This document shows, piece after piece, positions 3,065-6,523 of a DNA stretch of 64,000 nt. The DNA is from Solirubrobacteraceae bacterium (GTDB taxonomy: Bacteria; Actinomycetota; Thermoleophilia; Solirubrobacterales; Solirubrobacteraceae), in NCBI GenBank assembly GCA_030690545.1, contig JAUYGN010000079.1:39386-103385 (forward strand). Direction: 5' to 3'. Numbering within the stretch: the first letter of the stretch is position 1; every line of letters begins with the position of its first letter. Below the pieces are notes generated by a model, which saw nothing but the letters and a program-made list of their open reading frames with translations, did no database searches and was not told the origin of the DNA. The translations under genes were made by a program, and so were the position numbers.

Positions 3065-3400
3065 TCAGGACCGGGCCGTGCGGCCGCGGTTCGTGGGCGT
3101 CGGTTGACGGCGTGAGCGCGCTTTGCGGTTCCATCGACGGGTGAGGCAAGTGACGGCGACGTAGGAGCCGTCGATGTGCTGTCGCAGGACGAAGGCGATG
3201 TCGTCACCTACGAGCGGGTAGCCGTCCGGCGCGTCGCGCGGGCCGTCCTGCAGCCATGCCGGCGGAGCCTTGGAGGACGTAAGATGCGCGGCGAGACCCG
3301 TGAGATGGGCGAGCGCCCCGTCTCGGTCACATCCCGGCCAGACGCGCTCGACGGCGCGGTCGAGCGCGTGCCGGCTGAACATCAGCACGAACGTGCTCAT
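3065..3400 (-). CDS. Small hypothetical protein, toxin-like (DUF4258-like pattern), basic tail
   Basis: Internal ATG at 3400 whose ATGA overlaps the stop of the upstream gene. The sequence is MSTFVLMFSRHALDRAVERVWPG...GYPLVGDDIAFVLRQHIDGSYVAVTCLTRR. The F-x-x-HAL-x-R-x-x-ER start and the ...vaVTc... end resemble small RNase-type toxins. Third-position GC is high. Confidence 0.6.
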   Translation of the reverse strand: MSTFVLMFSRHALDRAVERVWPGCDRDGALAHLTGLAAHLTSSKAPPAWLQDGPRDAPDGYPLVGDDIAFVLRQHIDGSYVAVTCLTRRWNRKARSRRQPTPTNRGRTARS

Positions 3401-4512
3401 CGCTGGGCGCCCTTCGGGCGCTGGATGTTCGCGAACGGAAGCCGGCCGCGCGCATGCTCGAACTCGGCGATCAACTCGGCCTCGAGGCTGACGGGCTGGT
3501 CGGTGATGATCCAGGCGACGAGCAGGTCCGCATGGTCGGCGAGCTGCCACATGTACCGACCTCCAACGTGGGCCTCCTTGTGGCCGGCGCCGTAGCGAGC
3601 CAGTTCGCGGACGCGCTTGGACAAGGGGCGGTCAGACTTCCCGATGTAGACCAGCGGGGTCTCGTCGGTCCACCGAGCGGCGAGTTCGTCGATGGACGCC
3701 GGCAGCTCGTCGCGGTAGGGGCCGCCGACGCTACGCTCCAAGAACGCGGGCGCAGCGTCGGTGGCGCGCAGCACCACGTAGACGCCAGGCTGCTTGGGCA
3801 GCAACGATGCGTTCTCGCGAACCCGAGCGAGCGGGATGAACCCCTCAAAGCCGCGGCGCTTGAGGTCCTCGGCAGACAAGGCCGCTACGGTCGGAGTGGC
3901 CGCCGTGGCGGTCAAGATGACCTCGCGCTCAAGTTCGCGGAGCTCCAGCACGCGTCGTGCGAAAGCGACGATACGGTCCTTGTCGTCTTGCTCGGCCAGC
4001 CTCGACCAGAACGAGAGGATCTGGTCGGCGTCGGCGATCAGATCGCGTTCGGCCTTTCGCTCGCGCGGGCCCAATCCCCATAGCGCGAGTTCGTATGCGA
4101 GGTCGACCAACTGCTCATCGGTCGCGTCGGGGTCTTTCAGGAGCGTCTCGGCTTGCTCGTGGGTGTAGCCGATCAGCTCGTCCCACATGACGAACGTCGT
4201 GGTCTGCTCGGAGTCGACGATCTCAGCAAGGACGCGACGCGCGTCGTCACCGGTCGTGTGGCCGGCGACGATCAGGACCGCCTCGGGGTTGTAGTTGAGG
4301 GCGTCGGTGAGGCGGCGAATCGTGCGCTCGTTCGGCACGGTCTCCCCGCGCTGGAGGCGCCCGAGGTGCGAGTGGGCGATACCAGCGAGCTCGGCGATCT
4401 GCCGGGCGCTCATCTCGTTGTTCTCGCGCATGTCCCGCAGCAGCTCGGGCAGGCGCTGTCCGGGTTCCGCCCGGACTCGATCAGGAGTGGTCATAGGAAC
4501 CACCATAGACAT
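3397..4512 (-). CDS. Fusion protein: N-terminal XRE-family HTH, helical linker, C-terminal GIY-YIG-like nuclease domain
   Basis: HTH: MSARQIAELAGIAHSHLGRLQRGETVPNERTIRRLTDAL. C-terminus: PGVYVV...LVYIGKSDRPLSKRVRELARYG...H...EAELIAEF...LPFAN, which resembles the GIY / YIG / R / E / N elements. The spacing is non-canonical, about 43 aa between GVY and YIG. Confidence 0.75.
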   Translation of the reverse strand: MSMVVPMTTPDRVRAEPGQRLPELLRDMRENNEMSARQIAELAGIAHSHLGRLQRGETVPNERTIRRLTDALNYNPEAVLIVAGHTTGDDARRVLAEIVDSEQTTTFVMWDELIGYTHEQAETLLKDPDATDEQLVDLAYELALWGLGPRERKAERDLIADADQILSFWSRLAEQDDKDRIVAFARRVLELRELEREVILTATAATPTVAALSAEDLKRRGFEGFIPLARVRENASLLPKQPGVYVVLRATDAAPAFLERSVGGPYRDELPASIDELAARWTDETPLVYIGKSDRPLSKRVRELARYGAGHKEAHVGGRYMWQLADHADLLVAWIITDQPVSLEAELIAEFEHARGRLPFANIQRPKGAQR

Positions 4513-4853
4513 GTTTAGGTACAGTTATGTAACGTCTGCCGGACCTTTTGGACTATCGTTCGAGGAGACGCGACGCCGCGCGCGGCAGGGACATATCGAC
4601 ATCCCATGGCGCTTCGCGTAGCTCCGGGCAATGCCGACCGACTCGCGCGCTGAGCGACCGCTGGCGGAAAGCAGCGGGTCAGGAGCCGCGTCGTTCCAGC
4701 TCCTGGCAGGGATTCCGCGAGGGTCCACGAGCGCATCGACAAGGCCCACGTGCCGCGCCTGAGTAGCCGCCCGGCCTGCGCCCTGCGCGCGCTGCGCCCA
4801 GCAGCACGCGTCGCCCGCCGAGCCCCCCCCGGCCACCAGCGCCGGGCGGCGCG

Positions 4854-6523
<1,670 letters not shown>

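Follow-up and report, generated by a model that had tools for sequence, protein, structure and literature searches.

A candidate toxin-antitoxin-like or defence cassette coupling a helix-turn-helix/GIY-YIG-like protein to a small BECR-fold protein in Solirubrobacteraceae and related actinobacteria

Among the described systems, the closest to the locus considered here are the type II toxin-antitoxin (TA) modules that combine a BECR-fold toxin with an antitoxin carrying an XRE-type helix-turn-helix (HTH) domain, such as HigBA and MqsRA, and the DUF4258 proteins with their MqsA-like partners (PMC11980606). DUF4258 has been listed as a BECR toxin family with unknown target and an antitoxin-then-toxin gene order, and fusions of DUF4258 to the HTH protein MqsA have been reported (Gerdes 2025, PMC11980606). 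DUF4258 has also been placed in the colicin-like BECR branch, whose characterised members mostly cut tRNAs, and the active site of these ribonucleases (RNases) comprises a pre-alpha helix with a conserved His and an Arg or Lys, which forms a pocket with the terminal strand (bioRxiv 10.64898/2026.08.28.747851). In this study we analysed computationally a 64,000-nucleotide stretch of contig JAUYGN010000079.1 from a Solirubrobacteraceae bacterium (the window), in which two coupled genes on the minus strand, between positions 3065 and 4512, encode a protein with an XRE-type HTH and a GIY-YIG-like nuclease domain and a small basic protein whose modelled fold is that of BECR toxins. This cassette looks like an undescribed TA-type or phage-defence module, a function that we predict from the features presented below.

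The cassette shares with type II TA systems a small basic BECR-fold protein coupled to an HTH partner, the antitoxin-then-toxin order tabulated for DUF4258, an acidic/basic charge pair and candidate operators at the promoter. Unlike in those systems, the HTH partner is 365 amino acids (aa) long and carries a complete GIY-YIG domain, the small protein belongs to no Pfam toxin family, and two of the cassette loci consist of three genes. The initial annotation, made from the letters of the window, had proposed a two-gene system in which an HTH-nuclease fusion is paired with a toxin-like partner and which matches no named system. The first proposal holds for the window, but the system really consists of three modules, which are split into three genes elsewhere. 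The second stands as proposed: a comparison with PADLOC-DB v2 gave no full-length system match and none for the nuclease domain or the small protein. Moreover, an HTH-GIY-YIG protein coupled to a BECR-fold protein was not described in the full-text literature that we searched, and no antitoxin with an HTH and a complete GIY-YIG nuclease domain was found there.

The gene pair and its nuclease-bearing protein

The large gene (3397-4494, minus strand) encodes the XRE-HTH, an acidic middle region and the GIY-YIG-like nuclease domain, and the small gene (3065-3400, minus strand) encodes 111 aa comprising a BECR (RelE/ParE/colicin-like) fold core and an Arg-rich tail. The two are joined by an ATGA stop/start overlap at 3397-3400, where the TGA of the large gene overlaps the ATG of the small one, a layout of translational coupling; both open reading frames (ORFs) were confirmed as originally drawn. 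The longest ORF of the large gene spans 3397-4512 (371 aa), and residue numbers of the large protein are given in this 371-aa frame. The gene probably starts at ATG 4494 (M7) rather than at 4512, because M7 aligns with the start of the homologous gene on the metagenome contig L001, the closest locus, and the DNA upstream of it aligns with L001 as non-coding sequence. The product from M7 is identical to the 365-aa NCBI protein P0001, labelled 'helix-turn-helix transcriptional regulator' and derived from a Solirubrobacteraceae metagenome-assembled genome (MAG), and the small protein is identical to the 111-aa NCBI protein P0005, also from a Solirubrobacteraceae MAG. The GC periodicity of both ORFs was of the coding type, the GC content at third codon positions (GC3) being 0.86 in the large and 0.82 in the small gene against 0.45 and 0.57 at second positions. 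Homologues, GC3 and conservation rule out that the ORFs are spurious. Compared with both cassette genes, GC3 is higher in the flanking genes, namely pyrG, arsC and the aquaporin gene (0.93-0.98), and there is a modest GC dip across the islet that holds the cassette (0.64-0.71 vs 0.72-0.76 in the flanks). Taken together, the lower GC3 and the GC dip fit horizontal acquisition of the cassette.

The divergent GIY-YIG nuclease domain of the large protein was delimited to residues 215-365 (3418-3870, minus strand) by profile, AlphaFold2 model, Foldseek matches and core residues. The motifs quoted in the initial annotation all read as described: G243-V-Y245, Y289-I-G291-K-S, K299-R300-V-R-E, E344-A-E-L-I and P359-F-A-N362, with the core residues Y245 (3778-3780), Y289 (3646-3648), R300 (3613-3615), E344 (3481-3483) and N362 (3427-3429). 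A profile built from 45 domain sequences retrieved only GIY-YIG proteins from the PDB, namely the UvrC N-terminal domain (E 0.014) and T4 endonuclease II (E 0.27). In the UvrC match both motifs are aligned, PGVY with PGVY and YIGKa..L..R with IYIGKAKRLSNR, which places R300 on the catalytic Arg39 of UvrC. The AlphaFold2 model of the domain, built from the same 45-sequence alignment, had a predicted local distance difference test score of 94.6, and its top two Foldseek matches in the PDB were UvrC GIY-YIG domains with probabilities of 0.98-0.99, template modelling (TM) scores of 0.61-0.68 by target length and an E-value of only 0.02; all other PDB matches were noise. The five core residues are invariant in all eight full-length cassette copies compared. 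Across the family, Y245 and Y289 are invariant in the 45-sequence alignment, and R300, the metal-binding E344 and the structural N362 are invariant or conserved in at least 90% of its members. The curated GIY-YIG models stayed below their cut-offs for the window protein (MUG113 E 0.06-0.15, GIY_YIG_2 E 0.12), and among relatives of the domain 2 of 32 matched GIY_YIG_domain at E 4e-4, with further weak matches to UvrC and DEDD-GIY-YIG models. From the profile, the model and the invariant residues together we conclude that the C-terminal domain has the predicted fold of a GIY-YIG nuclease with a complete catalytic set, as had been proposed, and that it is predicted to cleave DNA. A degenerate nuclease domain was considered and ruled out by the invariance of the catalytic residues.

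The N-terminal GIY-YIG domain of UvrC (PDB 1ycz, 1yd5, 1yd6) was thus the best and only meaningful profile and structure match. The two domains share the aligned patterns ..P..PGVY.. and ..YIGKA..L..R.. and the set of Tyr, Tyr, Arg, Glu and Asn. Unlike UvrC, which has about 10 residues at this position, the cassette domain carries an insert of about 43 residues (FL..S.GG.FKG.DP followed by a helix), and it further differs in an extra N-terminal beta-alpha element and a conserved GHWGGR..WQL motif. In addition, the remainder of UvrC is absent, and the family consists mostly of stand-alone proteins of about 160 aa. The unusual gap between GVY and YIG had been pointed out from the beginning, and we found the interval from Y245 to Y289 to be 43 residues, so that the canonical GIY-to-YIG spacing of about 10-11 residues is not kept. 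The insert is conserved family-wide and confidently modelled; it does not exclude membership of the superfamily and marks a distinct subfamily.

An exhaustive profile search, with clusters taken at 50% identity, assigned 2169 representative clusters to the domain family at E ≤ 1e-3, of which 413 reach E ≤ 1e-30. Stand-alone proteins of about 160 aa make up roughly half of the 150 best members, and fusions to HNH, ERCC4, REase-ARP, HARE-HTH or XRE-HTH domains also occur. In RefSeq plasmids, members are labelled 'hypothetical protein'. A separate observation concerns Bacteroidota loci (L004-L020, L028, L030 and L062; Muribaculaceae and relatives), in which stand-alone family members are preceded by an HTH_11-WYL-WCX regulator and in many cases have a hydrophobic ORF of about 157 aa after them, as in L004 (598-1506 and 1537-1995). 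The regulator and the nuclease form there a second, independent regulator-plus-nuclease arrangement for the family.

The N-terminal part of the large protein contains an XRE/Cro-C1-type HTH at residues 23-77 (4282-4446, minus strand). The HTH recognised by eye in the 371-aa product was borne out by matches above the gathering cut-offs of two Pfam families over exactly these residues, HTH_31 (E 1.2e-9, 38.8 bits, cut-off 27) and HTH_3 (E 1.3e-7, 32 bits, cut-off 23). Its sequence matches in the PDB were the HTH domains of DdrO, XRE-family and C proteins. The PADLOC-DB v2 matches of the large protein (RmrA, HTH_VI, capH and Control_protein) are confined to this domain. The middle region that follows, residues 86-214 (3871-4257, minus strand), is as acidic as had been noted, with an isoelectric point (pI) of 4.3 and 28 Asp and Glu vs 14 Lys and Arg residues. 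It gave no family match in Pfam, NCBIfam, PADLOC or PDB sequence searches, and it could be the toxin-neutralising or the dimerisation part of the protein.

The small protein

The small protein comprises a fold core of residues 1-87 (3140-3400, minus strand) and an Arg-rich tail of residues 88-111 (3068-3139, minus strand). Its overall pI is 10.7, and the 24-residue tail, with 10 Lys and Arg residues, has a pI of 12. It reads F8-S-R-H11-A-L-D-R15-A-V-E-R19 near the N-terminus and Y80-V-A-V-T84-C85-L-T-R88-R before the tail, in agreement with the initial description of YVAVTCLTRR followed by Arg-rich sequence (Y80-R89). A profile of the cassette copies retrieved 52 relatives, 35 of them at E < 1e-3 and none with a Pfam domain; H11, R15, R19, P47, W49, A82, T84, C85 and R88 are near-invariant. 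On the minus strand the codons of H11, R15 and R88 lie at 3368-3370, 3356-3358 and 3137-3139, respectively, and those of T84 and C85 at 3146-3151. Searches of Pfam, NCBIfam, PADLOC and PDB sequences with the small protein gave no match, and a 39-member profile of the family compared with PDB sequences produced only noise.

The structure model of the small protein was confident, and its top matches in a Foldseek search of the PDB, about 33 in number and with probabilities of up to 0.96, were all toxins of the RelE/ParE superfamily: ParE/ParE1, HP0892/HP0894, YafQ, HigB, YoeB, RelE/RelE1 and the RelE-like domain of Cami1. Among the viral structures of BFVD it matched uncharacterised phage proteins of 100-130 aa with probabilities of 0.98-1.0, the seventh match (0.98) being a phage protein annotated as DUF4258. 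The phage family phrog_8252 was matched by 15 of 39 members of the small-protein family. In tblastn searches of GenBank phages neither the small protein nor a phage-context relative found a match. On the modelled structure, with helices at the N-terminus ahead of a 3-4-stranded antiparallel sheet, the small protein is a member of the BECR/RelE-ParE fold superfamily.

In the model, H11, R15 and R19 lie on the first helix (residues 10-19), and T84, C85 and R88 on the last strand (residues 80-87). Judged by helix and strand position in the model, this layout of conserved residues appears to be that of the colicin-like BECR RNases described above. The initial annotation had been reminded of small DUF4258-type toxins. 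This resemblance stands as regards the predicted fold (RelE/ParE, and the DUF4258 phage protein) and the motif layout, but it does not extend to Pfam membership: DUF4258 (PF14076) did not match the window protein and scored with only one of 39 relatives (E 0.15).

A side observation concerns the DNA that encodes the first helix. Positions 3342-3369 form a 28-nucleotide near-perfect palindrome inside the small gene, which encodes the conserved HALDRAVERV helix, and the corresponding hairpin is retained in L001 with one G·U pair. With a folding z-score of only -2.46, the hairpin may be a by-product of the amino-acid sequence.

Fused and split forms of the cassette and relatives of the small protein

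The full-length large protein is rare and has only three relatives among 5.8 billion proteins. By look-ups of genomes, metagenomes and contigs the cassette is known from nine loci, which lie in Thermoleophilia-type MAGs or on metagenome contigs; two short loci were contributed by a metagenome scan with a narrower alignment. The large gene is fused in the window (a Solirubrobacteraceae MAG), in L068 (likewise a Solirubrobacteraceae MAG) and on the metagenome contigs L001, L002, L003 and L081, and it is split in L015 (a Thermoleophilales MAG) and L024 (a Solirubrobacterales MAG). The remaining metagenome contig, L082, is cut upstream, so that only the GIY-YIG-like domain is visible before the small gene. 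The gene order is the same in all nine loci, and a 4-nucleotide overlap was present wherever checked (ATGA in L001, L002, L003 and L068, GTGA in L015 and L024, and four nucleotides in L081). In every one of the nine loci that carry the close small-protein subfamily, the nuclease domain is encoded directly upstream. The expectation that the two genes are conserved as neighbours was thus borne out, with coupling in all nine loci and several of these in defence or mobile contexts. Since the GIY-YIG fold with its catalytic residues was recovered as well, the earlier interpretation is supported, the toxin-like call at the level of the modelled fold.

The split loci consist of three coupled genes, which encode a 217-aa XRE-HTH and acidic protein, a GIY-YIG-like protein of about 159 aa and the small protein; the start of the nuclease gene overlaps the HTH gene by 8 nucleotides. 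The fused protein is collinear with the split products, which are separated exactly at its linker, and its acidic middle region corresponds to the C-terminal two thirds of the 217-aa protein. This natural fusion or fission is strong evidence that the three modules work together. We take the tripartite TA operons of the paaR-paaA-parE type, which have a separate XRE regulator, to be a looser analogue of the split loci. These operons share with L015 and L024 the order of HTH regulator, middle gene and RelE/ParE-fold protein, all coupled; unlike in them, the middle gene of the cassette encodes a 159-aa nuclease domain and not a short intrinsically disordered antitoxin.

In the wider family the two partners also occur apart. 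The GIY-YIG-like domain was found in 68 genome loci, 61 of them without the small protein, which implies that the nuclease family does not generally need it. Moreover, two cassettes carry a damaged small gene beside a nuclease gene that keeps all catalytic residues: in L002 an in-frame TAA is present at about codon 22 (6158-6160), and in L003 the small gene (about 2790-2886) has lost the conserved last strand. As read from these sequences, this suggests that cells can dispense with the small gene or that selection acts against it. Distantly related small proteins, in turn, occur without a GIY-YIG partner. In L074, L076 and L080 their genes are each preceded by an unrelated ORF of 64-81 aa whose stop codon overlaps their start codon, in a TA-like arrangement; no homology to these short upstream partners was found in any part of the large protein. 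In L073 (4348-5474) a relative follows an SNase-domain gene with a 1-nucleotide overlap. Others adjoin a RusA resolvase gene on two unrelated phage-like contigs, in L072 (72-910) in the order small gene then RusA with a 4-nucleotide overlap, and in L085/L086 (3386-4324) in the order RusA then small gene. Such swapping of upstream partners is typical of toxins.

These neighbourhoods also bear on a rather unlikely alternative, according to which the small protein is not an autonomous toxin but an accessory or regulatory subunit of a DNA nuclease (a nucleic-acid-binding partner, a specificity factor or an inhibitor), and the operon encodes one HTH-targeted GIY-YIG complex. Such a complex might work in the manner of a restriction enzyme, either solitary or modification-dependent, with HTH control of the C-protein type. 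The relatives of the small protein adjoin nucleases of 'four unrelated folds', among which we can name GIY-YIG (nine loci), RusA (L072; L085/L086) and SNase (L073), and the Arg-rich tail would suit nucleic-acid binding. C-protein/REase operons contain an HTH control gene followed by an overlapping nuclease gene, an order that the HTH-then-nuclease genes of the cassette resemble, and the HTH weakly matches control proteins of restriction-modification systems (PADLOC Control_protein, E 0.002; C.AhdI in the PDB). The fusions of the GIY-YIG-like family to HNH, ERCC4, REase-ARP and HARE-HTH and the tolerated loss of the small gene in L002 and L003 point the same way. However, the nuclease family does not generally need the small protein, which is missing from 61 of 68 loci, and the invariant His/Arg set of the small protein occupies the position of the BECR RNase active site. 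The top structural matches were all bona fide toxins, and other relatives pair TA-like with short non-nuclease ORFs. In the window, moreover, no cognate methyltransferase gene was found in the cassette or adjoining it. With its hydrophobic N-terminus, the SNase protein is possibly exported, and thus the SNase adjacency may be fortuitous.

The damaged small genes weigh against a reversed TA of the nuclease-inhibitor type, in which the GIY-YIG nuclease would be the toxic effector and the small protein its immunity protein or antitoxin. Nuclease-immunity pairs are common, the catalytic residues of the nuclease are strictly conserved, and tight translational coupling would ensure co-production of both proteins. 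On the other hand, an intact nuclease beside a broken antidote gene, as in L002 and L003, should be lethal, most members of the nuclease family are stand-alone proteins, and the 61 loci mentioned above have no small gene. In addition, the small protein has a toxin fold and is very basic, unlike typical acidic immunity proteins. We therefore consider this reversal very unlikely.

Genomic setting and proposed function

In the window the cassette stands alone, as an islet of about 2.4 kb with an arsR/aquaporin/arsC cluster on one side and pyrG on the other. The neighbour genes differ in every locus, and defence or mobile genes recur among them. AbiEi/AbiEii genes lie directly upstream in L002 and L015 and an AbiEi gene in L024, and a tyrosine integrase gene is present in L015 and L024. 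The neighbours in L002 include a gene for an Mrr-type nuclease and RmuC, and in L015 a fragment of an Eco57I-type methylase gene lies nearby on the opposite strand. The pair in L081 is flanked by genes for an OLD-family ATPase-TOPRIM protein and a PLD-helicase protein, one on each side, and a group II intron reverse transcriptase gene is found near the cassette in L068.

The DNA upstream of the large gene contains an 18-nucleotide candidate operator/promoter box, GTCCAAAAGGTCCGGCAG (4536-4553, minus strand), 42-59 nucleotides upstream of ATG 4494. Upstream of the gene the window and L001 have otherwise diverged, and this box is the sole long block conserved between them; L001 has it as the left arm of an inverted repeat, GGTCCGGC-N12-GCCGGACC. 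The loci L002, L068 and L081 have a different box, GGCAGCACCA, with one copy at the -35 region and another at the start codon. On the strength of their position and conservation, the boxes are candidate operators that the HTH domain might bind. Scans for sigma-70 promoters and terminators found nothing, as expected for a high-GC actinobacterium.

The change of neighbourhood from locus to locus could also be produced by a selfish homing-type element, in which an HTH-tethered GIY-YIG endonuclease spreads the cassette by cleavage of a specific target and the toxin-fold gene is carried along as addiction or stabilisation cargo. Homing enzymes of the I-TevI type consist of a catalytic GIY-YIG domain, a long linker and an HTH DNA-binding domain, and the large protein follows a similar logic; in the window, the cassette is an isolated islet of low GC3 beside repeat arrays and a tRNA-like fragment. 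However, I-TevI has its domains in the opposite order, the HTH of the cassette belongs to the XRE regulator/antitoxin type and has conserved boxes at its own promoter, and an intron, intein or phage context is absent. A tethered homing enzyme also agrees poorly with the split loci, where HTH and nuclease are two polypeptides. We consider this explanation very unlikely, as unlikely as the reversed pair.

The repeats downstream of the small gene had been described initially as iterons in an islet of lower GC content. Both the repeats and the GC dip are real, but the repeats lie outside 3065-4512 and the dip is modest. In the non-coding segment 2423-3064, seven of the 24 AATCC pentamers of the window fall within 280 bp, at 2648-2936, in two 10-bp-phased arrays of inverted orientation (2648-2684 and 2905-2936). 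These flank a minus-strand fragment at about 2830-2785, GGTCGCGGGTCCAAGTCCCGTCGCTCACC, with a purely visual resemblance to the T-arm and acceptor 3' end of a tRNA. The tRNA/tmRNA and Rfam scans of the islet yielded nothing, and ARAGORN at relaxed settings gave only low-score matches elsewhere. Judging from the letters, the arrays and the tRNA-like core may be a decayed att-type site and the islet the remnant of an integrative element. Beyond the islet, the translations at 858-2422 were read as an ArsR-like regulator, an aquaporin/GlpF-type channel and an ArsC-like protein of the low-molecular-weight protein tyrosine phosphatase type. In two other loci, L003 (2751-3355) and L068 (3332-4239), the DNA downstream of the cassette holds a common gene pair. 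One product has about 231 aa and is winged-helix-like at its C-terminus, the other has 71-72 aa (MKGRSRFT..), and neither matches Pfam. This pair may be a further linked module or may reflect shared ancestry of the two contigs.

The reading that we favour, with even confidence and no more, is that the cassette is a horizontally acquired, autoregulated TA-like or defence operon of three modules, with an RNase-type toxin and a nuclease-bearing antitoxin. The layout is that of type II TA systems, since the genes are adjacent, co-oriented and coupled, with the DNA-binding partner encoded upstream of the small gene, and the middle region (pI 4.3) and the small protein (pI 10.7) form a TA-like charge pair. 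This reading starts from what the loci establish: how the genes are built and that their coupling is conserved, which domains and folds their products are assigned to, that fused and split versions exist, and which genes surround them; what we infer from it is which protein neutralises which, the substrates, the trigger, the autoregulation and any role in defence. In the proposed mechanism, the HTH and acidic module would bind the operator at its own promoter and repress the operon, and the acidic part of the large protein would keep the basic small protein inactive. The HTH/acidic part is the probable sequestering element in view of its charge complementarity and the gene order. The GIY-YIG module would be a second, DNA-directed effector, and the small protein an RNase toxin with tRNA, mRNA or the ribosome as its target. 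Once the large protein was depleted, titrated or altered, for example by phage infection or loss of the element, the toxin would be released and would arrest translation, and the nuclease might then attack DNA.

Several points weigh against this proposal. The cassette of the window sits between arsenic-resistance genes and pyrG and not in a defence island, and it is rare altogether, with nine loci in one actinobacterial class that are mostly metagenomic. The Foldseek support for the toxin fold is consistent, but moderate (E 0.013-0.4, TM-scores 0.4-0.5), and a sequence-level link of the small protein to any toxin family was not found in the Pfam and profile searches. That the large protein binds or neutralises the small one is what we infer, and in the split loci it is the nuclease and not the HTH that is encoded directly upstream of the small gene, so that the GIY-YIG domain could be the neutralising partner. 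The adjacency of relatives to RusA genes on two phage-like contigs, in both orders, and to an SNase-domain gene hints, at the level of gene neighbourhood, at a nuclease-accessory role, and the recurrence of DNA nucleases of different folds next to this family is unexplained by the toxin model. The damage in the small genes of L002 and L003 may be due to errors in metagenome assembly. Finally, PADLOC has no model of the system, which fits novelty and gives no functional support.

Compared with defence systems outside the classical TA modules, the cassette resembles Rosmer (RmrT/RmrA) and other XRE HTH-enzyme defence pairs in that an HTH-enzyme fusion is encoded beside a toxin-like gene. The PADLOC RmrA models match the large protein over only the approximately 55 residues of the HTH; unlike in Rosmer, the enzyme domain is GIY-YIG and not a metallopeptidase, and the partner has a BECR fold. 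Operons of the ptuXYZ type, likewise predicted to serve in defence, also combine a DNA nuclease with a BECR-fold, RNase-like protein (PMC11980606). Unlike the cassette, they contain neither an HTH fusion nor a GIY-YIG domain, and the cassette proteins are unrelated to their DUF262 nuclease, P-loop ATPase and PIN'-YoeB.

A bolder extension of the TA-like reading, which we consider unlikely, would be a three-module immune system in which an active GIY-YIG nuclease, joined to an XRE HTH, is the antitoxin and its coupled partner is a colicin-like BECR RNase, so that one complex would serve as repressor, infection sensor and dual DNA/RNA effector. The GIY-YIG-like family, with more than 2000 clusters and often preceded by WYL or XRE regulators, would then represent a new widespread class of regulator-gated defence nucleases.

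If the TA-like reading is true, the cassette represents a new TA or defence architecture, in which an HTH 'antitoxin' carries a catalytically intact DNA nuclease and is combined with an RNase-fold toxin, and it raises the question of how two nucleic-acid-degrading activities are restrained and then released together. Whatever the mechanism, the analysis defines two unannotated families, a large GIY-YIG subfamily with an insert and a small BECR-fold family that includes phage members, both of which could enter domain and defence-system databases. The fused and split forms of the cassette provide a clean natural experiment on which module binds which.

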